Positions 136 to 46,333 of a stretch of DNA of 64,000 nt are shown in pieces; the first letter of the stretch is position 1, and each line of letters opens with the position of its first letter. Source of the DNA: Psammoneis japonica (taxonomy: Eukaryota); assembly GCA_008632985.1 (NCBI GenBank), contig QPGO01000041.1, positions 62,001 to 126,000 of the forward strand, read 5' to 3'. Both the position numbers and the translations under genes were made by a program. Under the pieces are notes generated by a model. The model was not told the DNA's origin. It saw nothing but the letters and a program-made list of their open reading frames with translations, and made no database searches.

Positions 136-164
136 CTGTAATTACAGTCGATTCAAAGAACTGG

Positions 165-380
165 ATGGAGACTAGGAACAATACAAACAAATTGACTAAA
201 CGTGAGAAAAGAGAACTGCGCGCAAGAGCAGCAGTTTGGGCCATTGAGCACCAGAAACAAGTGCAACAGCGCAAACGACACGAGCAGAATTTGGCGAGCC
301 GAGTGCATCATTTGGAGTCAAAGGTAGAGTCCCTGGAAAGGACTATTGAACAATTGTATTCCCTTTTTCATGATGAGTGA
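165..380 (+). CDS. 71-aa upstream ORF of Gypsy element, basic region + leucine-zipper-like heptads
   Basis: Conserved in copy 2 (10344-10559). L-x6-L-x6-L-x6-L. Stop lies just past the gag ATG at 370. Confidence 0.55.
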   Translation: METRNNTNKLTKREKRELRARAAVWAIEHQKQVQQRKRHEQNLASRVHHLESKVESLERTIEQLYSLFHDE

Positions 381-4500: not shown

Positions 4501-5082
4501 CATGACAATGGTGGAGAATTCATTGGAGAGGACTTCCAATTGCCATTGCAACAAGCGGGAGTGGAAGACGCTCTGACCACGTCGCGAAATCCACAAGCCA
4601 ATGCGGCATGCGAGCGCATGCATCAAACTGTTGGAAACATCTTGCGCACTTTGCTTCATGTTTGTCCTCCACAGAATGTTGAGCAGGCCAATCAACTGGT
4701 GGACAATGCATTGGCAACCGCCATGCATGCAATGCGATGTGCAGTTTCTCGTGCTCTCAAGATTTCACCCGGTGCCATGGTTTTTCAACGTGATGTGATT
4801 CTTGACTTGCCGGTCCCAGCCGATCTTGCCACCATTCAAGAACACCGACAAGCGATTGTCAATGCGAATCTCCGTCGAGCCAACGCCAAACGCCAATCCT
4901 GCGATTTTCAAGTTGGTGGACACGTTCTACTCAAGTCTGTCGATCCCACCAAGCTCAAACCACGAGCTCACGGTCCACATCCTGTCGTTCAAGTGCACGC
5001 TGACGGTGCGATTACGGTCCAACATGCACCTCATGTGACAGAACGATTGAACATTCGTCGCGTCGCACCGCATCGTACCTGA
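1591..5082 (+). pseudogene. pol: Pol polyprotein (PR-RT-RNaseH-IN), disrupted
   Basis: LDSGG, TPKKDGRVR, TYIDD, FLGHW, EKELLA, VDLIGPW, HDNGGEF, NPQANA-ERMH motifs. Frameshifts near 1640, 2630 and 2820. CGA->TGA stop at 3580-3582 relative to copy 2. Confidence 0.93.
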
Positions 5083-5195
5083 GGTTGAGGGTTTTCTCCC
5101 CAACATTTGGGTTTCCCTTCTATCCTCATCCATTGGAATTTGAAAATTTTTGAGTCCCGCATGATTCTCGACACTCGAATCATGGAAGGGAAGAG

Positions 5196-5357
5196 TGCAG
5201 TGTCTCGCACCCTATTTTTCTGATATATAGTATTAATGAACCTATTAGATATAACGGAAGCCGTTGTAACGGGCTTCGCTGAAAGCGACCCTCATTACCT
5301 CGGTCTTTCGCTCACAATTTTGTTGTCACCAAAGTCTTTGTCTCGTTGGACCTTGCA
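5196..5357 (+). repeat. 3' LTR of Gypsy copy 1 (162 bp)
   Basis: TGCAGTGT...CCTTGCA, preceded by the PPT. Confidence 0.95.
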
Positions 5358-5362
5358 AAACC

Positions 5363-5524
5363 TGCAAGGTCTGACGAGATGAAGACTTCAGTGATGACAA
5401 AATTGTGAGCGAAAGACCGAGGTAACGAGGGTTGCTTTCAGCGAAGCCCGTTGCAACGGCTTCCGTCACATCCAACAGGTTCATTAATGCTGTGTGTCAG
5501 AAAAACAAGGTGCGAGACACTGCA
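5363..5524 (-). repeat. 3' LTR of Gypsy copy 2 (heavily TpA-mutated)
   Basis: Aligns without gaps to 10589-10750; PPT complement CTCTTCCCTTCC follows at 5525. Confidence 0.95.
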
Positions 5525-5636
5525 CTCTTCCCTTCCATGATTCGAGTGTCGAGAATCATGCGGGACTCAAAAAATTTAAATTCCAATGGATGAGGATAGA
5601 AGGGAAACCCAAATGTTGGGGAGAAAACCCTTGACC

Positions 5637-8600
5637 TCAGGTGTGATGCGGTGCGACGCGGCGTACATTCAATCGTTCTGTCACATGAGGTGTGCGTTGG
5701 ACCGCAAGCGCACCGTTGGCATGCACTTGAACGACAGGACATGGACCGTGAGCTCGTGGCTCGAGCTTGGTTGGGTCGACAGCCTTGAGCAGAACTTGTC
5801 CGCCAACTTGAAAATCGCAGGATTGGCGTTTGGCGTTGGCTCGATGGAGATTCGCATTGACAATCGCTTGTCGGTGTTCTTGAATGGTGGCAAGATCGGC
5901 TAGGACCGGCAAGTCAAGAATCATGTCACGTTGAAAAACCACAGCACCGGGTGAAATCTTGAGAGCACAAGAAACCGCACATCGCATTGCATGCATGGCG
6001 GTTGCCAATGCATTGTCCACTGGTTGATTGGCCTGCTCAACATTCTGTGGAGGATAAACATGAAGCAAAGTGCGCAAGACATTTCCAACAGTTTGATGCA
6101 TGCGCTCGCATGCCGCATTGGCTTGTGGATTTCGCGACGCAGTCGGAGCGTCTTCCACTCCTGCTTGTTGCAATGACAATTGAAAGTCCTCTCCAATGAA
6201 TTCTCCACCATTGTCATGGACACACAGGTCAGGACGAGGATGACGAGACAACCAACAATTTTCAAATTGTTGAGCAATGTGAGACGAGGTTTTGTTGTCA
6301 ATGCGAATGAGTTCAGTCACATTCGAAATGGCGTCAATGCAAGTCAAAGCGTTGAATTCGATTTCATGGTTTTGAGTTTCAATTTTCCAGGGACCGATGA
6401 GGTCAACTGCAACTTCCGTCCATGGCAATGAAGGCGCTTCCCGTTCAGGCAGGTCCCCACATCCAGGGCCTAAAGTTTTCAAACGTTGACAATCAGCACA
6501 ATGAAATCTTTCACAGGATTGACGAAGGGCAGGATGATGGAAATGTGTGCCAACAGTGGAATGCATTCGGTGCACTCCTGCATGTCCCAAAATCCCCTGA
6601 TGCCATCGTATGATGTCATGCAGCAACGCCGTTGGAACACAAATTTTCCACGCAGTTGGAGGATCATTCGGTCGAGCACGACAACAAATTACAGGACGCT
6701 GATTTACACATTCCACAACGAAGCGTTCTGGATGTTGTTGTCGCATGTTGCTCAGCTCCACGTCGACGAATTGGCACTCTTGAATTCGTTGCACAGTTGC
6801 AGGGTTTTGCATTTCCTCGAGAGAAGGACAGTTCAAAAATGATTCACACAATTCGGGGTCGTCCACGACAGAAGAGTAAAATGGAGATGGTTCTTCACGA
6901 CGACAGGAAAAATGAGACACGCGGTTTTGGTCGTCCAGTTCTTCTTCATGCGGCAGCATGGCAGGGTCGATCGCCTTAAAAGTCAATCAGCTTGCCCTTG
7001 TTGGGGAGCACACTTCCCTTCCGCAGGAGGGTCCATGCGCGGCAATCTTGAAAAACAATCCGCCAAGAGATTGTCTTTGCCATCAACGCATTCGAAAGTT
7101 GGGGCAAAATCTTCCAAGAAGAGTCGCCACCTAAGAACTCGTTGAGAATTGAGCGTGCGAAAGGTGAGATTTTTATGATCCGTAAAAACAGTGCAGTCAG
7201 CTCCAAATGACATGCTTCGAAATTCTTTGAAACACATTGCCACCGCCAATGATTCTTTTTCAATCGTAGAGCAGTTCTGTTGTGCTGCGCTGAGTTTCTG
7301 GGACCAGCAAGCCACTGGTTTCCCATCTTGCATGATTGCGGCTCCCATCTGACAGTCCGAAGAGTCAGTGCAAATGTGGAATGGCTTGTCATGATTCGGG
7401 TGGACCCAAAGGGTGTCGTCCAGCATCAAGGTTTTCACATCTTCAAAGGCTCGTTGACATTCAGGGGTCCATTCCAACTTGCTCTTGCCTGTCAACTTCG
7501 TGAGTGGAGCAAGCACGTGTGAGCGACGAGGCCACATGTTGCGACAATGAGTCACCGCACCGACAAACGATCGCAGTTGCGTCATGGTTTTAGGTGGTTG
7601 CATTCGCAGCACCGCTTCCACTTTCTTCTTCCACGGTCGGACTCCTGCAGGCGTGAGCCAATGGCCCAAAAAATCCGTCTCTTGGACACACCATTCGCAC
7701 TTGAGTGGGTTAATTTTCAGATTGTTCTCTTCTAGTCTGGATGACAGCTCATCGAGTCGACGCATGTGAGTTTCAAACGAATCATCAAATTGAGCAATGT
7801 CATCGATGTAAGTTTCAACATCGATTCCTTTTGCCACTTTTTCAATGATGGCTTGAGCAATGTCGGGAGAGGTTTTCAAACCCATGGCCAATCGACAACA
7901 TCGAAATTTTCCAAACGGAGTGACAACAGCACACAAATCCTTGGATTCTTCGTCAAGTTCGACATGATGATAAAACACAGTGAGGTCCAACTTGGTCAAG
8001 CACTTGCATCCTGAGCGTCGGTGAATGACGTCTTGAATGATCGGCAGAGGACAGACCTTTCGTTTGAGCACCTTGTTCAACTCTCGAAAATCGGATGCCC
8101 ATCGAACTCGTCCATCCTTTTTGGGAGTTACAAAAGTTCCGGCTGCCCATTCAGTTGGTCCCACTGGTTCCAGTGCGCCAACATTACACAGATGTTGCAG
8201 TTCTTTCTTAAAAACGGCTTCATCCCTCTTGGATGCTTCGCAAGCCTTAGAATGGAAGGGAACAGCATTGGGGTCAACTTCCAAGTGAACAGTCTCATGC
8301 GGATGTTTGCCAAGCATTCCATCAAAGAGGGTTTCATGCTTTTCAAGCACAGCCTGCAGCTCATCACGTTGTTCTTGAGTTAAGTGAGTTTGAGCTTGCG
8401 CCACTTTCGCGGATGATGCTTTCTCGTATTTGGCGTCCATCATAAAAGATTGTCCGAAGGCTTCCTCATCGTCTTTGTCCTCTCCGTCGTCTTCCAGTGC
8501 ATCCAACCAATTCTGAACTGAGTTCCAATGATTGGATTGCTTCATTGGGATCGACGTTTCCAACCACTTTGTTGTTCCAAATCGAAAATCAAGCACGATT

Positions 8601-9133
8601 CCGGCTTTCGGCAAAAAGTCTTGTCCCAAAATTAAATCACACTTGCATGGGGCATCAAAAACTTGAGCCGCAATGCTGTCGACTTGTTTTGACTTGTCAA
8701 ATTCTGGCAATGTCAAGTCCTTCACAACAACGCATCGGGAGGATTCATGTCGTCCGGCTGCCGTCTGAAAGCTCAACCATCCTTCATTGTTCATGGTTGG
8801 ATTCGCTCCCTTCGGCAAAACTCGAGAATGAACAAGAGTGTCAGTGCCTCCTGAATCCAACAACACTCGCAACACTCGCTCACTCTCTTGATTTTGAATG
8901 GTGCGCGCCGCCATCAACGTCATTGGCACCACATTCAATGGTTCAGGAGTCGCAGTTTTAGGGGTTGGTGCAGCGCACTCCAAAACGCCGCCCAATTTTT
9001 CTTCATTCACAGCATGAGATTCCATCAGGTCTCCCACATTGTCATCAACATTAAAACACATGTTTTCTTCACGATCACGCGAAACATAAAAAGATTGAGC
9101 GACACGCTCTGACTCGGGCACTTCCGTCCCTTG
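5637..9133 (-). pseudogene. pol: Pol polyprotein of copy 2 (PR-RT-RNaseH-IN), one frameshift near 7000
   Basis: 712-aa and 449-aa ORFs with LLDSGG, DFRELN, YIDD, FTDHKNL, ADCFSRL, integrase core and a GPY-derived GPC. Confidence 0.93.
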
Positions 9134-10354
9134 TCAATTGCGCCAACTTCGTTGGCCTTGATGGGCACGACCGTTCTGATCGCACCCATTTCCACCTCGC
9201 ATCTCACGAGGCCCTCCTTGATCAAAATGGCGCGACTCCATTTGCCAGCCACCAGGAGGAGCTGCTCCAGCCGGATTTCCATGGCCTTGGGCATCACCGT
9301 TGGCTTGGGTGCCATTTTGATTTTGGCAATGGGATCCATTCCCTTGAGAATTCTGGGAGTCATTACAACTGCCGTAACCTCGGCCTCCACATCCTCCTTG
9401 ATTGCCACAAATGCCACGTCCTCGACCTTGGAAGTTGCCACGACCGCCTCGACCTTGGGGTCCTCTGCCTTGGCAGTTTCCTCGGCCTCCACCACGACCT
9501 CCGCTGCTGCCGCCACGGTCGGACCTCGGTCGATGGTTTTGGCTTTCTGGATTCAAAATGCAATCCTCCCACTTGTGGTCATGATTCGCATGCACCGGGC
9601 ATCCAGATTCTGGATCCGTTCCACCACTGTTGCCACGAGAGCGTCTTGAAGCTTGAGACGAAGCACCATTGCTTTTCCTCTTCTTGTCCTGCTTCTTGTT
9701 GCTGCTCTTGTCAGCAAAAGATTTCTCGTTGTTCACATGACTGATGATCTCAGCGAGAGTGTCGTTCGCTGTCGCTCGTCCTGCTCGAGTGTGCATCTCA
9801 TGCCACGGACGAGGAAAGCCATCGAATGTCATCTTTTTCTTCTGAGCTTCGTTGACTTGAGGAGCATTTCCTGGAAGTTTGTTGGAGTGCCGAATCAAGG
9901 TTTCCATGCGATCTGCATGCGCCTGTGCTTCAGATTTGAATGGTTTTTTCAAAGTCAGCAAACATTCAATCATCATATCACGCGCTTCATTGTCACAATA
10001 AGACAAGTAAAAACGATTGATTTCCTGATCAAAACGCTCGACAGTTTTATCGGCATCGTCAATTGCATTGGTCAAGTTCGCCCACTTGTCCTCTGCAGCA
10101 TCCGCAAGCACTTCCTCGAAATTTTCGAACAACTCCTCGCCAGCAGTGTACTCCAATTTCACAGCAATTTTACGAAAATGATCCTCAACAAATAACAATG
10201 CTTCAATGCCATGAGTGCCATCAAAACGCGGACACTTTTTTGTACGAGCACTGCCGTCATCATGCGATTGGGTCAGTTTCACTTCCTCCAAGTCAGAATG
10301 CTCAAATTTAGCTTCACAGCTAATGCAAGGCTCCTTCAACGATTCACTCATCAT
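9134..10354 (-). CDS. gag: Gag-like protein of copy 2
   Basis: Near-identical to 370-1590. Confidence 0.8.
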   Translation of the reverse strand: MMSESLKEPCISCEAKFEHSDLEEVKLTQSHDDGSARTKKCPRFDGTHGIEALLFVEDHFRKIAVKLEYTAGEELFENFEEVLADAAEDKWANLTNAIDDADKTVERFDQEINRFYLSYCDNEARDMMIECLLTLKKPFKSEAQAHADRMETLIRHSNKLPGNAPQVNEAQKKKMTFDGFPRPWHEMHTRAGRATANDTLAEIISHVNNEKSFADKSSNKKQDKKRKSNGASSQASRRSRGNSGGTDPESGCPVHANHDHKWEDCILNPESQNHRPRSDRGGSSGGRGGGRGNCQGRGPQGRGGRGNFQGRGRGICGNQGGCGGRGYGSCNDSQNSQGNGSHCQNQNGTQANGDAQGHGNPAGAAPPGGWQMESRHFDQGGPREMRGGNGCDQNGRAHQGQRSWRN

Positions 10355-10559
10355 GAAAAAGGGAATACAATTGTTCAATAGTCCTCTCCAGGGACTCTAC
10401 CTTTGACTCCAAATGATGCACTCGGCTCACCAAATTCTGTTCGTGTCGTTTACGTTGTTGCACTTGTTTCTGGTGCTCAACAGCCCAAACTGCTGCTCTT
10501 GCGCGTAGTTCTCTTTTCTCACGTTTAGTCAATTTGTTTGTATTGTTCCTAGTCTCCAT
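10344..10559 (-). CDS. 71-aa upstream ORF of copy 2
   Basis: Two amino-acid differences from 165-380. Confidence 0.55.
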   Translation of the reverse strand: METRNNTNKLTKREKRELRARAAVWAVEHQKQVQQRKRHEQNLVSRVHHLESKVESLERTIEQLYSLFHDE

Positions 10560-10588
10560 CCAGTTCTTTGAATCGACTGTAATTACAG

Positions 10589-10750
10589 TGCAAGGTCTAA
10601 CGAGATAAAGACTTCAGTGATAACAAAATTGTGAGCGAAAGACCGAGGTAACGAGGGTCGCTTTCAGCGAAGCCCGTTACAACGGCTTCCGTTATATCTA
10701 ATAGGTTCATTTATACTATATATCAGAAAAATAAGGTGCGAGACACTGCA
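10589..10750 (-). repeat. 5' LTR of Gypsy copy 2 (least mutated LTR)
   Basis: Retains TA-rich tract TTATATCTAATAGG...ATACTATATATC. Confidence 0.95.
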
Positions 10751-18229: not shown

Positions 18230-21200
18230 GGCAGCGAGGTGTCCGTTGGGACATATGGACAATCTGGGAGACCCAGACTCCCCTCTTCAGTAGAACAAGA
18301 GGTTCTCTTTGTGCACTCTACCAGCAACACCAGCAGCTACCTGCGACAGTTTGTTTTCTTGATTGACAAGTTTAACCGAGTCAGGAGCAAAATTTCTTTG
18401 AGCTCTTGCCACCAGAGGCAGCCATGTGGAACACGCCATTGATTGACAATTGTTTTTGGTGGTTGGTTCAAATGGCATTGCAGCAGCCATTTCAGCTGTG
18501 TGTTGAACTTTTTTTTTTGTTCTCATCTTGGAGGGTGCACCACTCCAACTTTCATTGCAGACCATTTCCCATTGAAGCTCATGTGTGAGAGGCCATCTGA
18601 TTCCAGTGCTGCAGGTTCCAGATGTGACTTTTCCCTGGCTGGGCCCAGGCTCTGGGGTGTCAGACCCTCAAATTTGGGGGCACATGCCCCAGCAGTTGCA
18701 GCTCTGCTGCCAAGAAGACAATTTGGCACAACACACAACATGAAAATTGAAACATTTGCCTTGAGTCCAGAGATGCCTTGCAAACAGCAGGGGTGCTTGT
18801 GAGCAAATCTCAGTCAAACAACTCAGCTTTGCTGTGGCATGCAGATGACTTTAAGTCTTCCCCCCCTGCTGTTGCTGCTGCTGAAAAACACAACTTTGCT
18901 CCACCATGGCAAATGAACTGCAATGGCAGTGATGCTTGCACCACCTTGTGTGAAACACGTGCAGTTGCTGCACCTTGTGTGCTTTCAAGTGACAAAAAAT
19001 GGCAGGTTGTCAAAAGTTGCATTGTGGAAAATGTGGTGCTGGCTTGTCTCTGGGAAAATGAAATCATGTGAACAGAGAATCACACAAATTTTCTGTTGGC
19101 TTGCACTTTGGATCACATGCAATTGATTGCACTGCAGTTTCTTTCACCCCATTTGCTTGTCACCACATGCATGGGTGCAAGTGGCACACTTTTGTTGTGG
19201 ATTGTCACACTGTTTGTGCTGATGGCCTGTCAACTCATGTGCCACATGCACAGATGCTCACTTCTAAAATGCCTCTGAGTTGCCAAGCAACAGCCTCCCC
19301 CACCTGTGCCTGTGCAGCATGTGCTGAAACTGTGCAGTGTGCACACACCTGGGATTTGTGCAGCTTTGCTTTGTTGCTGGCAGCACAGAACATGCTGCAT
19401 TGCAACAACGCAACAAAAACAAAAGAAAGAGCAGGCTCCTTCCTGGCAACACAAGCAGCCAATTCACAGCTGATTTTGGGAAAAGTTTTGCAACAAGTTG
19501 GCAGCAAACATCATGCCTTGAGCCTGACCCACACTGCATTTGACAATCTGTGCTTGCTGTGTTGTGGTCTGGTTGGGCCAAGTGTTGGCAGCTGCTGTGC
19601 ACCAGCCATGAGCCTTGGCAGTTGACCCCAGCACATGCTGCATCATGGTTGTCATGGTTGACAACATCAAGGTTGGTGAAAGCACATTCTTGCATGTGAG
19701 CGCACAAAACCAAACAGAAAAAACAATTTTCTCAATGGACAAAACAGAGAGCAATTTTTCTCACAATGAACCCCAGCTTTGGCAACTTGTGTCATAAAAA
19801 AAGGCTGATTAAAGGCTGGTTCCAACTCCAGATGTCATGCATGGGCCCATTTTGTGTTTGACAAAGCAAGCTCCTTCAATTTTGTAACTTTCCCAAATTG
19901 AAGGGCAAGCAGTGCACACAAAGCCTTGCTTTGTTCATGTGCTCTTGCCTTTGACCTTGGAAAAACCCAAAATTGAAGGAGCTCATTGTGCCAAATGTGA
20001 CATGGCATCAGTTGACAATGTTGGTTGATGTGATCTGCACATTTTGACTTCAGAGACCAACCTCAGCCCCCATGTGTGGTGTTTTTGCCCATGCTCTTGC
20101 ACTGATGTTGCCCTTTCTCAGACGGCATTTTGCTGGGTCTCACAAGACCATTCTGACCATTTCAGCATGATGTCAAGCAATGTTTCTAAGCAGTGGAAAA
20201 TTGCTGGCATTGACTCCTTGTGGTTTGCATGCTGATTGATCTTTTTTGCAATTTCCTGCAACTCAACAAATTTTCTGCATGGATTCCAGGACAAATTCTG
20301 TGTGCTTCAATGCTTTGTCAAATCTCTGAGCCACTCACACCCATGCCCATCTGCCCTCAACATCTCATTCTTTGTTCCCATTGGCCAATCAAGTCCTTCA
20401 CTCTGTTGGGTGAACGCACTGCCTCTGTTGTGGCACTGATGAGCATGAGAATGAGCCCCCCTTTGGCACCAATTGACAATCCTCCATTTGCTGCATGCAC
20501 CAGCATTTCCATGCAAGATCTGGCACATGGTTTCTGCTTGTGAAACATGTTTTTTCCAATGACCGACTTGTCACATCATCAAGCACTCCCATTTTTTGTC
20601 TCCCAGTCCTGGACAACCCTTTCCTCACTTGCCAGCAAATCAAGCTCCCTGTTCTTTGCAGTGATCTTTCCACCATTGTTCCATTGCTTGGAGGTGTGAA
20701 AGTGCCCCCCTTTTTGATGACAGAGCCAGCAGCTTGGCAATCATGTTTTGATCTCATTTCTTTTGCTGTTCTTAAACCAAGCTCTGGAAGCAATTGTTCT
20801 TGGCCATTGTGACATGGCAGCCACATGTTTCCAGCCCATGCAAAAGCAGCAAACTCTGCAATGTGTTCTCAGATGTTCCCCAGTTGCCTCAGTTGGTCTT
20901 TGCTGCAAGGTGGCACCAACCTTGGCCAGTCTGTGTCCCTTTCTGCTGTGCTCATTTTGTGTGCTGGAAGTGTGGGTGGCTGGTGCCAGCATGTCTGGCA
21001 AAGGAGCAATGGCACTTGCAAATTAGATCTGGTTTGATGGTTGATGTGATCTGCAGTGCAAGAACAGACATTGCACAATGTGAGATGGCTCCTGAGCAGA
21101 GTGCCAGGTGCAATTGATCGTTGCTGTTTTTGTGTGTCATGTGTCACAACAAACAGAAGCCATGGGGCATTTGCTGGCAGCAGAGTGAAGGCCAAGGCAA

Positions 21201-23400
21201 AAGTGAGACTGTGTGTGGCCAATGAAAAAAATGGCAGATTGAACAGCCCCATTTGTTCTTCCTTTTAACACGCCTCATGGTGTGCAGAGTGCAGTGGATT
21301 GTTTTGTCATTCTTGTGAGCCAGCAGTCACACAAATGCAAGCCACAAAAGGGCTCTGGAGCAAAGGCTGGCACACAAAAGTGGAGCTGTGCATGAGCAAT
21401 GTCAGCTTGACTGACTCAGTGAAAAGTTTGTCCTCCCCTCTGATGTGCTGTGGGTGGTGTTGCAGTGCTTCTCCAAGTGCCATTTTTTAAACCCCATTTT
21501 TCATTCTGCCTGTCATCCCAACTCATCAACAGCGCCAATGGGGTTGACTCACTCTGTTGAAATTTGGGGCTTTCAGTCAACTGGTGGAGGGTTTGACAAG
21601 CAACCATCAGGTTTGGTTCCTTAAACTGGCTCATGTTAAAAAGCTGCAGACGGAGAAGTTTTTTCCAATTCAACAAATCCACCCTGCACACCCATCACAT
21701 GATCCAGAGGCATTGCAGTGACAAGCTGTGGACCACCAACATTGTTGTGGCAGCCATGCTTGTGGCTCCAGAGGGGGATCAACAGAGTGCCAAGACATGG
21801 TCACTTTTCAGCCCTGATTCTTCATGACTCATTGAGTCAACTTGACCATTCTTGGAGTCAACTCAATCTTTTGTCATTCACAAGTTGCAAATGAAATGTG
21901 ACTTTGCTGCACTCCACCATTGCTCTTGCTGCTGCACTCTGAAAGGGGTCCAATCGACCACAACGGGTGGCCCAAGTCAGCTGAGCATGTTTCAATGACT
22001 CTTCCTTTGTGTGCCCAAGGACTCATCAAGGACAATTGGTTCCTTGGATGCAATGTGTTGCCTGTGAAAGTCACTTTGCCCATTGCCCCTGCTTTCCTGG
22101 TGCTCCAAAAAAAAAAAAACAAGGAAAACCTGCTCAAGGGTTTCCCTTGACTGTCCATTTCACAAAACCCAAAACAGTTTTTGACTCTTTCCAAAAAACA
22201 TGGAGCTTTTGAGCTTTAAAATCCAGCCCTGTTTCATCATTTGAATGTTGCATTGGTGACAGAAGTGCCACAAGCTTTGCAGTTTGTTGTTGCTTGTGAG
22301 GCAAAAGATTGCCATCAGATGGCATTTTTTCACCACTGGGGCCTTTGTTGGTGTTGTCTGAAGCCTCCAAACTGATTTTGATCAAATTTGATTGTCCCAA
22401 TGCAAGCTTGAGCTCCTCAGCCACAGAGTTGAGGTTTTCTAGATCACCATGGCAAAACTCTTCCCTGAGGGGAGATCCATTTGCTCAAATGCATCTGCTT
22501 GCCTGGCACTTCAGCTTTCTGCCCATTTCTTTCAACCAGCTTGTTGCATGGTCTGTGTGTTTGTCTTTAATCTGTGCTGCCAGCTTGGCTTGGACAAGGT
22601 TGGTTGCTTTTTGTTTGTCCACATGATGTGTGCACACTCATTTGAAGCCTGTTTTTCCAGGAAAGAAATGTTGGGCAGGGCTGATTTTTCACTGTTGACA
22701 TCTCAGCTTGGAATGTCTTTTTCATTTCATGACATTGGGCAACAACTTGGCACTTTTTTCATGTGCTGCCGGCACCTCCTCCTTGTTTGCATCAACAACC
22801 ACCCATGCAAGGACATCCCAAGCTCTGTTTGGGTCTGAGTGTCTTTGAACCAGAGCTCATTCATGAGTGCTGTTTTGTGCCACCACTGTTTTGAGTGTGT
22901 GTTTTGCAGTCTTTTTGTTGCCGTCGGCTTTGGCGCCAAGCGGAAGAGACAAAAATCTGGCACAGCACTTTTCAGCACACCAGCAACAGAAGCACCAGAA
23001 TCATGCCATTTGCTTGTGCATGTCACAGCTCAGCCGCCAACCCAAGAGCAAGGTGACACTCACAGGGCTGTCTCCATCAATTGAATTGTCTTCGTCAACA
23101 CATTGTGAGACATGGTCACACTTCAAAGGTGCGCGGTGCTGCCCAGCACAAAATTCCAATTGACAGCAGTGTCGCCATCACAGTTGCACACCAGTTTGAT
23201 GAAATTTCTTTGCAACATGCCATGGCAAAAAGCAGATGCTGACTGGTGCAAATTCAACATCAGCAGATTTTTTTTTGTGCCACTTGAGTGCTGGCACCCA
23301 CAGCTGCTGAGTCCCTCAGCTCTCAGCAGCCATCAAATCAACAATGTCTTCAATTTTTTTGTTGGTTGTCTCATTTTTCCACTTTTTTGTGGTGACGGTG
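18230..23400 (-). mobile_element. Highly decayed repeat relic, almost devoid of TpA and CpG; possibly Ty1/copia (CoDi-like)
   Basis: No coherent ORF. Faint GA(N/K)GG and INQ(Y/H)A-like traces on the minus strand near 20100-20500. Composition sharply differs from flanking genes. Confidence 0.35.
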
Positions 23401-23921
23401 GTTCAGTTCGCGCCTTGGCTGCTTGCAGCACTGCCCGTTTTCTTCATCGTCTGCCCCCATGATGGACGGTGGTTTGCCTTGCTCATCTCGTGACTCACTC
23501 GTGCGCGTTTCCTTCCCGCAAGCGAGCACAGGTGACGAACATTGTGTGTCTGTTTATTTTTTTTACACACACACACAAAAAAGAGGAGAGTCATTTCGAT
23601 TGTGCCGCACCATAGTACATTTTTTCTTTTTTGTCATTATGACAGAGTCATCGTGGCATAAAAACGAAGTCGGCGAGGATTTATGCCAAGATGGTCATCA
23701 ATTCAAAGAGACATTTTATTTATGCATACATTTTTGTATGTAGTGGGCTTAAATATTTTTCGACATTTTGATTAGTTATGACCTTTCGAATTGGCTCACA
23801 TTTTGTTTACGACTACTCCTCTCGAGTAATTTTCCAGTGCCCGAGCGTTCCGCAGTTTCGTGCAGACTGCAGGCCTCATTTTCTACGAAGGACGAAGCTT
23901 ACGAAAGGCCAGTCGTAAACA

Positions 23922-25709
23922 ATGAGGGTTCTTCCTATGGTTGTTGCCTTGCTATCCATGTTGCCGTCCGCATTCGGAAAAGGATTCAAGGCCAAGGATT
24001 GCTACGGAGACTACGGAGAGAAGTGTGACCTTGACGAAACAGATCTCGGAGACTTTCTAAATGAAGATGCAATCGACGTGGAATTGTTAGGCTTGAAGAA
24101 GCACTTTCGGCAAGTTAGAACAGAAAGACGCGATCAAGGAAAACCGAGCCGTAACGGAAGAAGAAAACGAAGTTGGCACGGCATTGACGGAGACGCCTCT
24201 ATTACTCTTGTCGAAGAAATCGGTCCCGATAATCAGAGGCAGGTTTTTGGCACAGTTCAGGATGAAAAGTTTGTTCATCACATCGGGCAAGATGGTCAAG
24301 GTAAGCCACGAGTAGTCTCAAAGCCTTTCTCAGCATTCCCAAGGGAGGCAGAAGCAAGGCCTATTGGCACTGTAAAGACGCCGAAACGTGTCAGGACCCG
24401 TGCTGTGCCTGGAGGTCGAAAACTGAGTGGCGAGAAAACCGAAATTGATGTCATGGTCGTCTGGACAACATGGGCTGAATGCAAGAATTCCGAAATGGAG
24501 CAGGGCTGTACACCGACAGCCCAAACCGAGACAAGCATGAGGGGCCTTATCGACGTTGCAGTTGACGAAACCAACGAAGCCTACGTACTGTCAGGAATAG
24601 ATGCCCGGTTGCGCCTCGTTCATTCGTATCGCCAAGAAAATTTCGTAGAGGAAGGTTTTGGGCATGCACTTGATACCATCTCCTTTGCAGAAGGTGCCAT
24701 GAGCGACGTTCACCAACAAAGGGAGAGTTGCGGAGCAGATGTTGTCGTGTTCCTGATCCATGACGAACTTTATTGTGGAATGGGATGGCTAGGCCCGGAC
24801 AAGGATTAGTAAGTTTGAAACAAAAGATTGTGCTTGTGTGTCCTCAAAATTTTGTGAGAGTTTCCGCTCAACGAACTTCATTGTCGGAATCGTGACTTTC
24901 TTGAATGTCTTGAAGCATGTACTCGGCCGTAGCATGGAATTGCGCAACAGGTTACTACAGTTTCGGACACGAGATAGCCCACAACATGTAAGTTGCAGAT
25001 GATGTGATTTGTATATCGATCGCTGTCCAGAGAGAGCAGGAACTCACGAATGCGCTGCTGACTTTTTGGGGCTCAGGGGTGCCAACCACGACCGTGGAAC
25101 GTCAGACATGTGTAATGAAAGCGGTGGTAACTTTGGCTTTCGGGATAAACAGTCTAGATTCCGCACCATCATGTCATATGATTGTAACACCGACCAGTGC
25201 GATAGTCTTGGTGGTACCAGAGGCTGCCAAAGGATCAAACGTTTCTCCACTACTGTGGTAGGTCAAGAGAAACTCGGTCTCACTTTTCTGAATCTGCGTC
25301 ACTTTACTAATGCTACTCTCTTTCGCTTTCTTCTAATAATGCTCTTTTATAGTACACTTACAATGGCGAGAGTATCGGAGACGCAAAGAACGATAACGCC
25401 TCACACATTAACAGCGTCGTAGAGGAAATAGCCGCATACTATCCAACAAGAGTCTTCGACCAGGAAAACATACCCGAGCCTACAGGTCCAACTGTTGTAA
25501 ATATGCCTTCCTCAGTCAATTGCCAGGATAGCACCGAGTGGAAATGTTTTAGAAGGCGAAGAAATGATTTTAAAGGATGTGATTGGGTTTCAAGAGCCAA
25601 GAATGACAAAGCGAGAAAGAGGCGATGCAAAAAGAAATCAAGTGCGAAACAACCTGCCAGTGAAGCATGTATTGCAAGCTGCCATGATGAATGTGTCTCG
25701 AAGTCTTAG
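23922..25709 (+). CDS. Secreted zinc metalloprotease, M12B/reprolysin-like (peptidyl-Asp metallopeptidase type)
   Basis: Signal peptide; spliced HEIAHNM-GANHD (HEXXHXXGXXH); RTIMSY Met-turn; Cys-rich C-terminus; three introns. Confidence 0.88.
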
Positions 25710-26019
25710 ACAAGTTAATTAGAATTTTTTAGCAATGAAGTCATGTCAGTTTCTTGTTCCTGGTGCTGCAATGAATTCTACAAGCTCTCTTTCTTTTTGC
25801 ACTGTGAATTTTAAAAACCAAGTTTCTTGTGATGTGTGCCAAGAGCTGCCGGTGCTGTGAATGATGGAAGCCATGTGATTCCCCCACAAACTGAATGTCC
25901 AACACCACTTGAAGAGACAAGTGGATGCATCATGTGATGCCAAGGATGATCACAAACAAGGTTGCTTCTTGTTGACTCTTTGCAACTTTTGCCAAGCTTT
26001 TGTGCATGTGACGCATGTG

Positions 26020-27020
26020 TCAATTGGGTCATTTTGTGAGTTGCTCCAATCAAACAACGCCGTTGTTGGAATCATGGCTTCCTTGAACATCTTGAGCATG
26101 CACTCTGCTGCAGCATGGAATTGTGCAACCAGTTGCAGACACAAGACAGCCCCAACATGCAAGTTGCAGATGGCGCAACTTGCAGCTCAACCACCATCCA
26201 GAGAGAGCAGGAGCTCACAATTGTGCTGCCACTGGCTTCTGTTGTTAGAGCTCAGGGGTGCAACCCCCCCCACACACACACACACATGGCTGCTGGAATG
26301 TCAGACATGTGTGGTGAGAGCAGCGGCAACTTTGGCTTTTGGGATGAACAGTCTAGATTCTGCACTGTCATGTCACATTGTTGCAAAGCTGATCAGTTTG
26401 AGTGGCACCAAAGGCTGCCAACAGATCGAACACTTTTCCAATGCTGTGGCAGGTTGAGAAAAGCTCCATTTTGCTTTTCTGAATCTGCGACCTTTTGCCA
26501 GCACAGCTCTCTTTTGTTTTCTTCCTTGTTCCAGCACACTCACAAGCAAGAGTGTCGGAGACTCAAAAAAGAATGATGCCCCACATGTTGACAGCATTGC
26601 AGAAGAAATGGTCACATGCCATCCAAAACAAGGCATTGAGCCAGGAAAATGCACCCAAGCCAACAGCTCTGGCTGTTGCAAATGTGCCTTCCTCAGTCAA
26701 GTGCAAGGACAGCATCAAGCGGAAATGTTTTAGAAGGCAAAAAAATGATTTGAAGGATGTGATTGGGTTTCAAGAGCCAAGAACAACAAAGCAAGAAAGA
26801 GGCAATGCAACAAAATGTCAAGTGCAAAACACCCTGCCAGTGAAGCATGCATTGCAAGCTGCTGTGATCAATGGCCAACTGGAAAAGCCCGCCAGCAATG
26901 AGGCAATGACAATTTCTTGTTCCTGATGCTGCAACAAATTCCACAAAAGCTTTTTCTTTTTGCGCTGTGAATTTCACAAACCAAGTTTCTTGTGATGTGT
27001 GCCAAGGGCTGCCAGTGAGC
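26020..27020 (+). pseudogene. Decayed tandem duplicate of the 3' half (with introns and 3' flank) of the upstream metalloprotease gene
   Basis: Colinear with about 24850-25860, e.g. catgtactcggccgtagcatgg vs catgcactctgctgcagcatgg. Confidence 0.9.
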
Positions 27021-28582
27021 TGTGCAGTCATGCAGGCATGCATGTGCTCAACATTTTTTGGTCATTGCCCATGATGACCACCATGCCACATGACGAGATG
27101 CTCCATTGAATGAGAGCGGTGGTGCTTCCAAATGAGACTGCCTTGCCAAAATTGTGGTGCCTTCAGACAATCCTCTGTTAAATTGCCGTTGGACATGTTT
27201 GTTTCAAGGGTGGTGAACCACATGCTTCTCACTCACCATCATCTGACCATCTCCTTGTTCATGCCACCTCCCACCACATTGATTGCATCCACACCTGACA
27301 CAGCATCAATGTTCAAATGATGCTTCCCAAAGGTGCAAATTTTACATCCAACATGTCCTCACTCTCCAGGTGGCTCAACAAAACCAAGGGCATGCCACAT
27401 CTCAGCATCAAAGATCTCTAAAAAATGTTCTTGTTGTTCCTGCTGGGCTTTGAGTCAGAGCAACATTTGAACAACTCACAAACTTGTTCTGTGCACAAGC
27501 AAAAATGTCCAGCTGAGAAATGCACAACAGCATTGTGGCATGTTCTGCATCATTTTGTGGGTGTGAATTTCAAACAATCACCTTTTTCAACAGACAAACA
27601 CACTCTTCTTTAACCTCTTCTGAAAGTCTGCATCAATTTGATTGAGCTCAGCACCCAAGCAATGTGTTTGCTGCTCTTTGGTCTTTCAACCACACAGAAG
27701 AGTGGGCACATGCTCACATCACTTGCTTGCCATGTTGCACAAAAGGCACCTCTTAGCACACATGTCTCTGGTGGTGTCTTGAGAGCATGTGTCAGAACAC
27801 TCGAATTTTGTCCTGTGTGGTGGTGCACGGCAAACAGGCTTGAGATTGTGGTGTCAGAGGCGAGCAGCATGATGCAGAACAATGGCGTGCTGTGGTTGTT
27901 CATGAAAATGGTTGTGAAACTTGCCATGAGCTGATCTCACCCTGACAAGGCCAACAATCTTCATGAACAAAGTGTTTCTGAGAATCTTTTTCTGCCAGAA
28001 AATCAAACACAAAGCTTGCGCTTTTCTGCCCAAACATTGTGGTCTCACTTTTCTAGAGTCATTGGAACTCAGGCAATTGTTGGTGTTGGCAACAAAGCAA
28101 AAGCCAAAGCAACATCTTGTTCTCTTGTGCACTGAGCGAGGGAGTCTCTCTTTCTCACCACACACCCTCCACAATGAAGTGCCATGCTGTCTGCCACACA
28201 AAAGTCTGTGTTGTTGCTCTCCAACAAATTTGCAAACTTCTGTTTTTTCCATGTCATCATGGAGATTGTGCAGCAACAGGAATGGGATGTTCTCCCCCAG
28301 AGACATCTTGAGAAATTCTTGGGCTCTTTGTCCAGGCGGGGCAGCACGTTGCTGGGCCTGGCCAATTCTTCCAATTCGAGTGGTTGAAGTGTTCATCTAT
28401 GAGGCCAGAGCAAAACTGAGCGACCGTCTGGCATGCGCCATGCGCCATGCGGCTGCGATCTTTTTTCGCGATTTGGGTGCGGATTTTCCCGGCACAGGCA
28501 GCGCATGCAACAAGGCAACAGGCAACAATAAAAGCGAAAGCATCAGAGCCATCGTGCAGTCGAGAGTAGACCGGATCATCTG

Positions 28583-29131
28583 ATGATGATGTGCTGTCAG
28601 AAAGAATCGGGTGTTACTGCTGTGGCTACGGTTGACATAAAGGCACCTGCAGAGCTAGTTTGGGATGTCATTGCAGATTTAGATGCGGCTCCATCCGTTC
28701 TTTCTTCCGTGCTGTCGCTCAAGCGTGACGTTGATTCACCGACTTTGGATGTCGGTACACGGTGGGCCGAAACCCGCCAATACAAGGACGACAAACTGAC
28801 GCTTCATAAAACAATAACCAAAATCCATTTGGCTGATGCAATGGATAATTCTTACATGATCAAGATTCATGTGAGTTTCAGTGGTTATGAAAAGTACGAG
28901 CGAATCATCAACACAAGTACTTTGACAATCACACCGTTGCCAAACAGCGATAAGGAATCTCCGTCGTGTCGTCTGATTGGGACTTTTGCGGTGGTTTCGG
29001 AAAGTTATTTCAGCTGGATAGTGGAATTCTTTGCTGTGATTTCTGGACAGCTCAAGTCTGCGAGAAAAGATTTCCAGTTGGAGATGGAGGAGTATGCGAT
29101 GGCAGCTATGAAGCGACAAGGGGGAGAATAA
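28583..29131 (+). CDS. SRPBCC / polyketide cyclase-dehydrase (START-like) protein
   Basis: IKAPAELVWDVIADLD...VGTRWAETR pattern. Confidence 0.8.
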   Translation: MMMCCQKESGVTAVATVDIKAPAELVWDVIADLDAAPSVLSSVLSLKRDVDSPTLDVGTRWAETRQYKDDKLTLHKTITKIHLADAMDNSYMIKIHVSFSGYEKYERIINTSTLTITPLPNSDKESPSCRLIGTFAVVSESYFSWIVEFFAVISGQLKSARKDFQLEMEEYAMAAMKRQGGE

Positions 29132-35900: not shown

Positions 35901-38039
35901 TTATAGCCCAGATAAAGCATCAACGCATGATTTCTTGCAAAATTGGCGGCACTGCACTGCAGCTGTCTTGTTGAACAAACCCATCTTTGGACACCGTCTT
36001 TCTGGCCGGCGTCCTACCCATCCACACTTTTTGATCCTTCCGTGCTTGTTCTTGATGGCAAACTTTCTGTTTTTACACCCTTTTGGGATAGGAATCTTAA
36101 TCTGTTGAACTTGTGCCGGCGGCACTGTTGTCAATGGACTTGTGGGCGCTTTAGTCGGCGGATTTGTTGGGGGATTCGTCGGAGGATTTGTGGGAGGATT
36201 CGTCGGAGGATTGGTTGGAGGATTAGTTGGCGGATTAGTTGGAGGATTCGTTGGAGGATTCGTGGGCGGATTTGTTGGCGGTGGTGTCGGTGGAGCTGTT
36301 GGCGCTTTTGTGGGTGCATCCGTGATGGAAATCAGTGGGTCCTGCAGGGCTGCATAATACGCAGCAACTTCAGCGCGAACGCTGTTGATTTGGGCAGCAT
36401 TGTCATTTTGTGCATTTCCGATTCGGACGCCATTGTAAAGATACTTAGAGGCGGGAAAAAGTCAGTTGAAAAGAAAAAATGTCATTGGATTGGGTTATTG
36501 AAGTATATGACACGCATTGGCGTCGTCTTCCGGCCATCACTTACCCTCGTGTTGGAAAATCGCATTACGCGTTCACATCTTGTTTTCGCTGGTGCATCGC
36601 AATCTGCTGGGTCGCAGTCGTATGCCATTATTGTTCGGAACGTTCCATCTGGGTCCCTGTATCCATAGTTGGAATTGGATGTATCGCTGCATAGACCCAT
36701 TGATCCTCGGTCGTGATTGCAACCCTGTACCACCCAAAAGACAAGTGCGTAATCGTGAGTCCCTCCTCTAGACAGGGGTCGTGATACTACAACTCGCGCA
36801 TCATCTGCTACTTACGAGGTTGTGGGAAACCTCATGTCCAAAGCTGTAGTAACCAGTAGCGCAACTCCAGGAACTGACACTAAACATGTAGTCTGGATGC
36901 GGTCCGAGCCATCCCAATCCGCAGTCTATAAGCAGCAAATAAAAACAAGACGTGAGCAAAGCTACGCGTTGAAATCTATTCGGGTGTGAAGCACGCTTAC
37001 AGTCGTCGTCGTGAATGAGCAACGACACTTGGTCAGCTCTAGCTCTTGTTCGTTCAAAGTGCACGTCAGCAAAGGTTCCGGTTTTGTTGGTTATTTCTTG
37101 CAGAGCATGTGAAAGCCTAATGCCCTCACTTGGCTCATCGTAAGTGGGATGACGATAGGCATGAACAAGTCGTAACTCCACATCGATTCCGCTCAAAGCA
37201 AAAGCCGTGTTGGTTTCTTCAACTGCCAGTTTGATTAGCCCCATCATCTTTTGCTGTGTTGCAGCTGTGAGGGTGCAACCACGAGCCATATCTGAGTACC
37301 TGCATTCAGCCTCTTTTGTCCATACTGTCATGACATCAATTACACTTCGATCATCACTCGCAGGTAGACGGCGCCGGCGATTATTGTCATTTATCGACGT
37401 GGCGTCACTTGAGTTTGAGTATATTCTTTCATGTTTGGAGGATGTCCCCCTCAAATGAGCAGGCGGATGCGCCAACGCATCGGATTGGTCTGGATGGTTG
37501 GAGGACGTCCGTCTCGAATGAGTAGGTGGAAGCGGCAATGCATCGTATTCGTCAGGAAATTCGTCCATGCGCTTATAGGTGGCTACAGGTGCACCATTCT
37601 GGTCCGGAGAAATATGAATGACGGCTCCATTCTCGTGAATGTTTCCGAACATCCATTTCTTATTGTCCGGCCCTGTTCGCGTTACAAGCATCATTGTGGC
37701 ATCTCCATCTGTTCCATACCAACTGGAATCGTCCTTATCGTCGTCATCCTCATGTGCAATGCCGTCTCGTACATCCAGCATTCCAATGGGTGGACGTGGA
37801 CGACGCGGCTTCGTTCTGACCCTCTTAAAGTGTCTTGCGGATCCTTGAAATAGACCTACATCAATAATCTCAGTACGTTCTATGTCACCAAGCGATGCAT
37901 CGTCTACTTTACACTTTCTCCCCTGGCATACAGTCGTGTGCATCTCACTGGCAGGACTTTGTGCGCCCTCCAATGATGTTGTCATTGGCAATAGCACGAA
38001 GAGTAGAAGCCAGAGAGTCTTGTGTTTCAGAAGCTTCAT
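35901..38039 (-). CDS. Secreted M12B-like zinc metalloprotease with Pro/Thr linker
   Basis: HEVSHNL-GCNHD, FRTIMAY, (TNPP)n linker, Cys-rich C-terminus; introns; paralog of 23922-25709. Confidence 0.85.
36150..36300 (-). repeat. 12-bp coding tandem repeat encoding (T-N-P-P)n
   Basis: GGAGGATT(C/T/A)GT(C/T/G) units. Confidence 0.8.
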
Positions 38040-40899: not shown

Positions 40900-41860
40900 T
40901 CGGCCTTGTTTGAGCTATTCTTGATCGTTTTCGTTCATTGAAGACATGGACATTACTTTTAGGAGGTCTGATTGTTAGGTAAGCCCCTTGGTTTGGCGAA
41001 AAATGGAGTTGTCGTTGTGTTGAAATCAAAAAATGGGTGTTTTCCAATTTTGAGCGGCAAAACCCATGCTTTGATCTTTTTTCGTTAAAGACACCTCCTC
41101 TGTTGCCTGCCATTGCTGGTGTCTCTCTATTGTAGATACGAAAGGCACTCACTGTCTTGGGCATGCTGTGCATTTGATCTGTGGTGAGAAACAAGGCACT
41201 GTCACATTGACTGGATTGACCGGATGAGACGGGTTCCAGCCCCAGGTGGGACTTTTTGTGACATTGGGCCCGCAGAATTCTACGTGCGAGCTCCGTAGTA
41301 AAATTGTTAAGCAATGGACATGTGAATGATCGCCAACAGAAAAAGAGGCAATTTTGCGAACGCATCTCCTCCTCCACACTTGAAGCACATTCTTTGCAGC
41401 ATGCCCGGGTGTGTTCTTTAGACATCAAACAATGTGCCCAGCACACTTTTGTTGACGTGAGTGCAGACAACAGAAAGCCTTTGGCTTCGCAAAACAGGCA
41501 GTGTGGAACAATTTTTTACAATAGAACACGCAGAAATGCACGCGCGAAACATGCGACAGATGACAAAAAACAATCATGTCACAGTTCAGCAGTGCGAGGT
41601 CCCACCCAGAGCTGGAACACGTCATGATCAGGAATGGTCACGACCCATGCTTTGATGTCATTTCGTTCAATGCACCTCCTCTGTTGCCTCCCATTGCTGT
41701 CATCTCTTTGTCACAGACACGAAAAGTGTCTCCTGTCTTGGGTGTGCTGTGTGTGTGATCTGTGGCGAGTGACATCGGCCGCACATGTGTGGTCTCGCAC
41801 CGGTGTTTTGAGACTGCCGCTGACCCACACTTTGATGTTTGTTCGTTCATTTCGTCTCTT
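40900..41860. repeat. Degenerate tandem repeat (unit roughly 170-180 bp) interrupted by a MITE
   Basis: ccatgctttgat...cacctcctctgttgcct..ccattgct...ctgtcttggg at about 41065 and 41646; related partial units near 40920 and 41830. Confidence 0.6.
41228..41623 (-). mobile_element. MITE family A, divergent subfamily (396 bp), TSD ATGA
   Basis: GACGGGTTCCAG...CTGGAACACGTC termini; ATGA at 41224-41227 and 41624-41627. Confidence 0.85.
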
Positions 41861-41991: not shown

Positions 41992-42387
41992 GACGCGTTC
42001 CAGCCCCAGGTGGGAGCTCGCAGCACTGACGTGTGACAACAACAATTTTTGTCATCCGTCGCATGTTTCGCACACAGATTTCTACGTGTGACATTTAAAA
42101 AAAATTGTCCAGACTCGCTGTTTTGCAAAGCCCCAGACGTTTCACACAACAAATTTGTAGAAACAACAATGCGCCAGTTACATTCTTCAATGTCTGAAGA
42201 ATGTAACTGGCTGAGTAAAAAATGATGTGCTTCAATCATGTGCGAGTTTGTGCGTTCGCAAAATTGCCTCATTTTCTGTTGGCGATCATTGACATTTTAA
42301 TTGCCGTGTGATTTTACTGCGGAGCTCGCACGTAGAAGTCCATGGGCCCAATGTCACACGGATTCCCACCTGCGTCTGGAACGCGTC
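41992..42387 (+). mobile_element. MITE family A copy (396 bp), TSD CCCT
   Basis: TIR GACGCGTTCCAG/CTGGAACGCGTC; CCCT on both sides. Confidence 0.92.
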
Positions 42388-44875: not shown

Positions 44876-46333
44876 TCTCAACTGCCGTATAAGCCCAATA
44901 ATCGTGAAACGAGTGGAGCAAGGGCTGGTTTATTGTTAACAAATTGAAAGCTGCTTCACTTCTTTTTGGTGTTTCTGTGACACCATGCTAAGAAATATTT
45001 AGGTAACTGCTATGCTTTTTCGCTGCTGACAAAGTGTGCAGTGTCTACCATGCTCTGTTGGCTACTAGCTACGTCTTCGCTCTACTCGACTTCTGAGTAG
45101 GTTCGAGTAGATTTATAGATATCTTGGATTAATTATTGCACTCATCTATCACGGCATTGCTGTTCTTCAGAATCAAAAGTTGGGAGCATGTGTGAACAAA
45201 TTCCAACCCTTCTTTTGCAAACTACTCACTTGACCAAACGTTCTGAAGATCATCTCTCGCATCATCAGCCCGTGTTATAACCTTATGAGTGGTAGACTGA
45301 TACCAGGTAATGGTGCATCTCTCTGGCACCGGACATTTTTTTTCTAACTAGAGTCGAGGAGGTCCAAGGTCAAATCGAGTGGGTCAACTGCACATCCAAG
45401 CTCCCATTAGAGCTAGAGAGTTGAGCAGCTACACTGGCTAGAGAGCGAACCTCTGGTGCTCTCTGGCAGAGCTCTCTACTGTGGAGCTTGAGCTGAGAGG
45501 GCCCTGCACACGCTAACCTGCCTGCTGTGCAACAGTGGCGCCAACTGCACGTGCGACTCTTCAACCACACTCTAACGTCAAAGTGCCACAGTGTGGGCAG
45601 ATGTTTGTGTCCCTGGTGGGCGGCAGGTGGTGCGTTCTTCAAAAGCGGCAGAGACCCAACGAACGAGTGACTGCCAGACCTTTTCTTTCAAAAGAGCACG
45701 TGCGCATGCATGCATGACACCGGTGCCGGGGAGCTGCTGGAAAAAACGATTGTGCTGCTGTGGCACAACTTGATGACACGTGGCGCCAGGCGCCATGTGC
45801 GTCCTGTGCATTGGGGGTGCAGACAGATGCCACCCGCAGCAGCACATGCATTGCCACAGATGCCAAACACCCAAATCACAGCCTCGATGTGAAAAGCCTT
45901 CAACAACACCAATGTTGTCTGATTTCATTTCCAAAAGCATTCGCTTGTCCACTCGTGTCGGCAAATTTCAAGATTCTCTTGCTGGCTCGATCGCGTCTGC
46001 ATCTCAAGAACAACAACCAAAAGCACAAAAGCCCAAAACAATCGAGTCAGGTCCCTCATGCTGGACACACCCAGCATGAGGAATCGCAGACAAGCCGGCC
46101 AGGCAGATGATGTTGTCAACATTGCAGCATGATGACGCTTGGGGCAACAAGCAGGCGCAACAATCGCGTCATCGGTGCATTTTCAAATTTCCCGCCAGCC
46201 ACATGGCGCGCAACAGGGTCGGTTCTCGGCTCTCTTTCCTTGTGCTCGCTCGCGAGAGCGTCGCAGCGACGATGAGATTGAGAAACGTTCACGGCAACAA
46301 TGCTTTGGCAAAACAATGCTTTTTGCTGTTGTT

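Follow-up and report, generated by a model that had tools for sequence, protein, structure and literature searches.

A partial copy of a Psammoneis japonica metalloprotease gene is stripped of TpA and CpG beside its spared parent

The DNA considered here is a window of 64,000 nucleotides from Psammoneis japonica (contig QPGO01000041.1, positions 62,001 to 126,000), eukaryotic in character, with short GT-AG introns and Ty3/Gypsy elements. Within it lies a gene for a secreted zinc metalloprotease, followed by a dead partial duplicate of the same gene. The same sequence is thus present twice, 171 bp apart: one version is spared, introns included, and in the other 96% of the parental TA dinucleotides (46 of 48) have been converted, along with surroundings unrelated to the gene. 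This natural control argues for position or chromatin state, and not foreignness, repetition, or selection, as what decides which DNA is altered. The explanation we favor, at a probability of about 0.6, is that a regional mutator acting on DNA changes A to G at TpA (preferentially TpA followed by a pyrimidine, Y), that a slower decay of CpG accompanies it, and that the two act on silent domains and spare active transcription units.

The parent is a four-exon gene (Table 1) with its stop codon at 25707-25709. Its spliced translation carries the zinc site HEIAHNMGANHD and the Met-turn IMSY, that is, the HExxHxxGxxH(D) motif and subsequent Met-turn of metzincin or reprolysin-like proteases; the N-terminus is hydrophobic and, judged by eye, resembles a signal peptide. 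None of the parent exons taken singly matched Pfam; the reprolysin-like families PF13582, PF13688, and PF13583 are carried by its distant homologs. A 1088-nt contig from a second public run (X2) omits all three introns at their GT..AG ends, and because exactly those introns are missing, the gene model is correct and the gene is expressed. The label "DNA?" given to run X2 is a guess; the run behaves as transcriptome data would. Its contigs cover 23897-25678 (the spliced contig, 24300-25678) and the sequence from 28523 onward; they are absent from 22500-23765 and 25876-28407, an absence that gives no verdict on the silence of the copy or the depleted blocks.

Self-BLAST identified the duplication as a direct repeat of 72.9% identity over 1042 alignment columns (E 7e-174). 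The copy begins within former intron 1 and retains equivalents of all three introns, plus flanking DNA that is not transcribed in the parent; because the introns were kept, it is a DNA-level duplicate and an origin through edited mRNA is excluded. This last point had been made in the initial annotation, which also recognized the duplication but placed the copy at 26020-27020; its limits are corrected here to 26031-27024. The four example strings it had listed are all present in the parent/copy alignment. A simple tandem duplication of a 1182-bp unit was considered and ruled out: the spacer 25860-26030 has no counterpart past 27024, where local alignment against 27025-28400 scored no better than shuffled sequence. 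The entire locus, both spacer junctions included, is covered by contigs of a public DNA run (X1); the arrangement is thus no peculiarity of a single assembly, with the qualification that X1 may be the assembly's own sample.

The copy is disabled many times over. All six aligned tyrosine codons are changed (five to His, one to Cys), the HExxH catalytic motif is destroyed, and both splice donors have gone from GT to GC, as follows from their reading G-TA. Deletions of 1, 2, 8, and 9 bases, several of them frameshifting, and a 21-base insertion that includes a short run of CA repeats complete the list. With introns kept, the 5' part missing, and disabling lesions throughout, this is a non-processed partial pseudogene. 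Divergence between parent and copy is concentrated at pyrimidine-purine (YpR) steps, where it reaches 29.3% (146/498), against 12.1% (56/464) at other sites; in introns, non-YpR sites have diverged by 15.6%. When YpR dinucleotides are collapsed to a single symbol, identity rises from 72.9% to 81.6%.

The spectrum of change is narrow. The 48 parental TA dinucleotides appear in the copy as CA (23) or TG (11), with 2 kept, 7 lost in deletions, and 5 changed otherwise; the 41 aligned parental CG dinucleotides appear as CA (19) or TG (13), with 2 kept and 7 changed otherwise. As controls, 65 of 82 TG sites and 53 of 71 CA sites were retained. The copy is left with 3 TA where 68.7 are expected and 10 CG where 55.3 are expected, as compared to 48 TA (78.9 expected) and 42 CG (49.0 expected) in the parental segment; the observed/expected ratio (o/e) for TA falls from 0.61 to 0.04. 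CA products outnumber TG products in the copy (42 vs 24), while the depleted block as a whole is balanced (TG 305, CA 324). The reverse configuration, TA in the copy against TG in the parent, occurs at 1 aligned site only. Double differences of the form TG<->CA number 13, six each in exons and introns and one in the flank.

The direction of change was established with an intact paralog of the gene located elsewhere in the window; 16 distant homologs were left out of the polarization. Of 71 alignable differences between parent and copy, 42 show the parental state in the paralog, 12 the state of the copy, and 17 a state found in neither; restricted to TA contexts, the counts were 12, 2, and 6. 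Because the outgroup sides with the parent, the changes are assigned to the copy. The initial annotation had described TA and CG conversion in the copy, had claimed that only the copy was mutated while the functional version kept its TAs, and had proposed polarizing the alignment with this paralog; 34 of 48 TA and 32 of 41 CG converted to CA or TG, the 42 to 12 division, and a parental segment at background levels, introns included, bear it out on all three counts.

Strong purifying selection on the parent, which the initial annotation had offered as one way to account for the asymmetry, is rejected by the introns. TA o/e in the parent introns is 0.49 (12 TA in 291 bp), as compared to 0.47 in exon 1, 0.65 in the 5' flank, and 0.77 in exons 2-4, and the intron value falls inside the range of the normal segments of the window. 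Equal TpA depletion of the parent introns, named in that annotation as the observation that would overturn its claim, is therefore not what we find (0.49 as opposed to 0.04 in the copy), and since introns stand at background, purifying selection does not explain the asymmetry. The parent is untouched by the mutator.

A two-state hidden Markov model (HMM) of the share of TA among YpR steps (TA/YR), run on the 64-kb window, yielded 10 depleted segments (TA/YR 0.004-0.032) set against normal segments of 0.13-0.30. The parent gene occupies a spared island (TA/YR 0.184, CG/YR 0.210) bordered at 23552/23555 and 25813/25819. Downstream of the parent, the TA boundary lies at 25813-25860 and not near 25730, where it had been put initially. 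A suggestion that the parent's own end, 25813-25859, already belongs to the depleted zone was dropped; it contains 12 YpR steps and 0 TA, which is not significant alone. On either side of the island are depleted blocks, 2.7 kb around the copy and 5.2 kb on the opposite side of the gene. The non-duplicated neighbors of the copy are as depleted as the copy itself (25813-26030, 0 TA against 16.2 expected; 27025-28336, 6 against 97.8), and because they share its block and its depletion, the copy was not a separate target.

Little in the present content of these blocks points to their origin. Pfam searches of 67 open reading frames (ORFs) of at least 60 amino acids from 18300-23650, 25800-26100, and 26950-28600 returned nothing but a chance-level line to DUF2946 (E 0.045), which came from the 56 upstream ORFs; the 11 downstream ORFs had no match. 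A Pfam scan of 42 long ORFs from the window likewise gave no family for the blocks flanking the gene. No terminal inverted repeats and no tandem arrays were found for the blocks, tblastx of depleted against normal segments recovered only the known duplicate, the long terminal repeats (LTRs), and the 41-kb repeat, and no look-alikes of the blocks were present among the other DNA windows compared. As an observation on annotation, neither TAA nor TAG stops can occur where TA is absent; depleted blocks such as 18377-23552 and 55195-63999 are for that reason crowded with long ORFs that overlap across all six frames and match no family, a possible source of error for gene callers.

TA loss and CG loss do not have the same borders. 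On the upstream side CG is back at 22922 but TA not until 23555; downstream, at the far end, CG is back at 28337 and TA at 28398/28529. The TA-loss front therefore lies about 630 bp (22922-23554) and about 190 bp (28337-28527) nearer the neighboring genes than the CG-loss front, and both of these intervals are upstream of plus-strand genes. In 22922-23554 there are 0 TA where 39.6 are expected, and 22 CG where 38.8 are expected; within the blocks CG o/e is 0.05-0.18. Ty3/Gypsy elements account for other depleted blocks of the window and show a separation in time. Two elements of one family, arranged tail to tail, have interiors with a TA/YR of about 0.03 and a normal CG/YR of 0.22-0.23; their LTR pairs are 91-95% identical as they stand and 98-99% identical after YpR collapse. 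Given the displaced fronts and these young elements, which lost TA and kept CG, TA loss and CG loss look like two processes. TA erasure is fast and very specific, as the TA-depleted, CG-normal interiors between near-identical collapsed LTRs attest, and CG loss is slower. The presence of both losses in the gene copy fits its age (15.6% intron divergence).

Comparison of the window with the X1 contigs suggests that the mutating process is recent or ongoing, since the differences all fall inside the blocks and nearly all at YpR steps. Within 22500-28800 we observed 12 differing bases, 12 of 12 in depleted parts (3770 of 6301 bases; P about 0.004 by our arithmetic, counting 11 independent events). 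YpR steps account for eleven of these bases, as five TA<->TG differences, four CG<->TG/CA differences, and one TG<->CA double. At 26346, X1 retains the parental TA of "gataaac", one of the four example strings; at 26455-26456 an X1 contig shows the TA intermediate of a TG<->CA double. The 8-base deletion of the copy is itself variable in X1, and where the 8 bases are kept, in a contig of depth 19.4, TG stands in place of a parental TA. X1 offers two alternative contigs for 26372-26486, at depths of 19.4 and 33; this 8-base indel and two G/A sites distinguish them, which looks like two haplotypes of one sample; contig depths are not copy numbers and were not used as such.

The TA dinucleotides that survive point to a target motif. 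Among 126 surviving in depleted segments, 78 are YTAR and 3 are RTAY (R, purine), as compared to 234 and 395 of the 1320 TA in normal segments; over-representation among survivors is strongest for TTAA, and both TA kept in the copy are YTAR. Because survivors are mostly YTAR and rarely RTAY, the substrate would be an A with a 5' T and a 3' pyrimidine (5'-TAY-3') on either strand. At RTAR sites in the copy, products are divided as this strand rule predicts (CA 10, TG 4).

The explanation we propose is as follows. The old, promoter-less, intron-containing 3' duplicate of the host metalloprotease gene would sit in a silent domain. There, a mutator would replace A by G in 5'-TA(Y)-3', whichever strand carries it, leaving TG or CA in place of TA, most plausibly through deamination of adenine to inosine. 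In the same domain a separate and slower loss of CpG, probably by deamination of methylated cytosines, would proceed alongside. The mutator would be aimed at domains, leaving active transcription units protected within them, and neither repeat homology nor foreign origin would guide it; the parent would thus be spared with its introns, and the neighboring block erased whether host-derived or not. Chromatin or transcription state would be the aiming signal.

Several observations weigh against this account. The case for the aiming signal comes from a single coincidence, that of the spared island with the limits of one gene, and the downstream boundary of that island is resolved only to about 50 bp. 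The interiors of the Ty3/Gypsy elements, presumably transcribed when active, are depleted, and it is their 5' 600-770 bp (2-748 and 9976-10750) that keep normal TA, so "transcribed means protected" is too simple. The flanking blocks may be old repeats. The duplication is old, and sequence cannot tell whether duplicating triggered the first mutations. X1 is possibly the same sample as the assembly, in which case its differences may be between haplotypes and yield no rate. Finally, YTAY sites in the copy gave TG 2 and CA 3, so that the TAY strand prediction is weakly borne out.

A mutator acting everywhere, with transcription-coupled or transcription-associated repair removing its lesions, would require no aiming at all: non-transcribed DNA would simply accumulate TA to TG or CA changes. 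In its favor, the spared island corresponds to the gene with short flanks, expression and splicing of the parent are seen, and normal sequence next begins at 28529, near the start of an X2 contig at 28523. We nonetheless consider this unlikely, as the 367 bp upstream of the ATG are spared but 22922-23554, further upstream, is not; about 31 kb in long normal segments, including DNA between genes, keep a TA/YR of 0.16-0.20; and retrotransposon interiors are depleted although the elements need transcription to move. Mutation triggered by homology or pairing, resembling repeat-induced point mutation (RIP) with reversed chemistry and with lineages carrying a damaged parent lost, is less probable again. 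It draws on the position of the hypermutated piece, a duplicate 171 bp from its parent, and on the 13 TG<->CA doubles, which could mean that some parental sites were also hit. Such doubles may, however, arise in the copy alone by way of a TA or CG intermediate, and X1 has TA at 26455-26456. Selection cannot keep TA in introns, yet the parent introns are at background, and depletion is equally strong in the non-duplicated DNA to either side of the copy. With 46 of 48 TA converted, variation is still present at 73% identity. Three copies of an element resembling a miniature inverted-repeat transposable element (MITE), 94-95% identical to one another, keep TA-normal cores. The target in Bigelowiella natans is also single-copy in the available text of the preprint discussed below. 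The initial annotation had suggested targeting by chromatin or transcription state instead of pairing, or else strong purifying selection; the first of these remains a proposal, pairing is indeed a poor explanation, given the equally depleted flanks, and selection fails, given introns at background.

No special process would be needed if an old pseudogene had simply decayed neutrally under a context bias acting genome-wide. The copy is old (12-16% divergence at non-YpR sites) and CpG decay is common in methylated DNA, but YpR divergence of 29.3% against 12.1% elsewhere, the fall from 48 TA to 3 in the copy while parent introns and long normal segments keep theirs, and LTR pairs only about 1% diverged after YpR collapse that flank interiors with about 97% of the expected TA share lost make neutral decay a highly improbable explanation. 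RNA editing of the ADAR or ADAT type, A to I after U, followed by reverse transcription and insertion, is scarcely credible. ADAR enzymes do prefer the sequence U-A. A preference for U at -1 is also given for fungal A-to-I editing in the part of the source available (PMC11156358). The copy, though, is not derived from processed RNA: it starts inside intron 1 and keeps three intron equivalents and non-transcribed flank. Depletion runs on into unrelated flanking DNA, LTR pairs diverged at YpR steps after insertion, sites are variable in place, and CG loss would be left unexplained.

The regional mutator with protected transcription units that we favor has a bolder form, to which we commit only tentatively, as it seems to us more doubtful than probable: by default, the mutator would erase every TpA outside active transcription units at 5'-TAY-3', and "self" would be defined by chromatin state alone. 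If so, a host-gene fragment that lacks a promoter would be erased just as a transposon is, and working genes would persist in protected gaps that exceed their transcripts by only a few hundred bases. The parent/copy pair, 171 bp apart and still variable, would then be a ready-made reporter for both the aiming signal and the enzyme.

Table 1. Positions of the gene, its copy, and other features within the 64,000-nucleotide window
Feature	Position	Strand	Details
Parent gene, secreted metzincin-type zinc metalloprotease, 498 aa	23922..25709	+	Stop-free translation of gene model
Parent exons	23922-24808, 24916-24987, 25077-25257, 25353-25709	+	Four exons, three introns
Parent-side duplicated segment	24849..25859	+	3' part of intron 1, exons 2-4, introns 2-3, 150 bp of 3' flank
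Spacer between the copies	25860..26030		171 bp, TA-free; part of 25813-26030 with 0 TA
Hypermutated non-processed partial pseudogene copy	26031..27024	+	TA o/e 0.04, CG o/e 0.18
Spared island, normal TA and CG	23555..25813		Gene, 367 bp upstream of ATG, about 100 bp past stop; HMM
Upstream TA/CG-depleted block, ending at promoter side of gene	18377..23552		HMM, TA/CG positions
Downstream TA/CG-depleted block, containing copy	25819..28527		TA/YR 0.015, CG/YR 0.052; HMM
Intact metalloprotease paralog, used as outgroup	36354..37922	-	tblastn, 36-60% amino-acid identity, three pieces
Two Ty3/Gypsy elements, one family, tail to tail	1-5357 and 5363-10750		RT, RNase H, and integrase domains
MITE-like element, 396 bp	41992-42387, 57975-58369, 60993-61389	60993-61389 (minus)	Older copy at 41227-41623

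Terminal inverted repeats (GACGCGTTCCAG...CTGGAACGCGTC) bound the MITE-like element, which also contains a palindrome internally. Its three copies become 99.0-99.7% identical after YpR collapse; their cores keep TA amid depleted DNA and are less converted than their surroundings, with one end converted in two copies and the third nearly unconverted. The large depleted blocks at 45519-49341 and 55195-63999 are intermediate in CG (CG/YR 0.11-0.17), and Pfam gave no recognizable protein domain in them but a sub-threshold DUF7385 line. The X2 contig starting at 28523, at a gene with polyketide-cyclase/START-like domains, begins at most 6 bp from the resumption of TA at 28529; contigs cannot show true transcript starts. 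An inverted repeat of 107 bp (83% identical; 51054-51160 and 51776-51877) lies in TA-normal DNA, and the window contains two Ns, at 50869-50870.

A natural, sequence-specific A-to-G DNA mutator together with the system that aims it would be relevant to genome defence and to base editing. The TAY target motif supported here narrows the search for the enzyme, and the locus separates TA loss from CG loss in space and time.

Among known systems, RIP in ascomycete fungi is the functional analog: it changes C:G to T:A, creates TpA, is triggered by duplication, normally affects both partners, and can spill over beyond the repeat. It works through cytosine methyltransferases of the RID/DIM-2 type at a premeiotic stage. 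The present locus resembles it in its dense, dinucleotide-specific transitions in place, in the involvement of non-genic or repeated DNA, and in the inactivation of copies. The chemistry, however, runs the other way, with TpA destroyed by A:T to G:C changes (TA o/e falling from 0.61 to 0.04, where C:G to T:A changes would raise it), and here the parent is untouched, its segment at background in both TA and CG with introns included, while non-duplicated flanks are hit. The copy is like other non-processed pseudogenes in keeping its introns, lacking exon 1 and the promoter, carrying frameshifts and lost donors, and adjoining its parent; it is unlike the usual ones in that its decay is dominated by two dinucleotide-specific processes and not by balanced neutral drift. 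The CG component resembles the 5-methylcytosine decay of methylated transposon DNA (32 of 41 CG converted to TG or CA, and low CG o/e throughout the blocks), which would leave the TA loss unexplained; the CG-loss front stops some 630 and 190 bp short of the TA-loss front.

The closest counterpart is in Bigelowiella natans. In a literature search that had most subscription journals outside it, TpA-directed A-to-G hypermutation of nuclear DNA appeared only in one 2026 preprint on that organism, and no report of TpA-directed hypermutation in a diatom was found. In the available text of that preprint, Mettrop et al. describe integrated giant-virus and virophage DNA as the target, with 230 of 231 mutations in hypermutable regions being A to G or T to C, all of these on TpA, and with a de novo rate, measured directly, of roughly 1000 times the background (bioRxiv 10.64898/2026.01.13.699255). 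The main hypermutable region is single-copy and transcriptionally silent, some TpA-poor genes are of transposon type and others probably of host origin, and the process is framed as a defence against viral DNA for which an adenine deaminase is suggested (bioRxiv 10.64898/2026.01.13.699255). As far as that text goes, the likeness is close: A:T to G:C change on TpA giving TpG or CpA (here 34 of 48 TA, and 5 of 11 variable events TA<->TG), regional action with sharply bounded regions amid normal DNA, and no need for repeats. The lineage is different, and the evidence for the present locus comes from sequence comparison. Depletion is deeper here (TA o/e 0.04-0.06, as compared to a Rho of 0.45 in the viral region there), a 3' pyrimidine rule (TAY) applies here where the B. 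natans text searched gives no 3' neighbor rule, and TA loss is spatially, if inexactly, coupled with CpG loss, where that text reports no CpG component. The B. natans target is foreign, whereas the piece erased in P. japonica is a host-gene copy that keeps its introns, and the intact parent alongside serves as an internal control.

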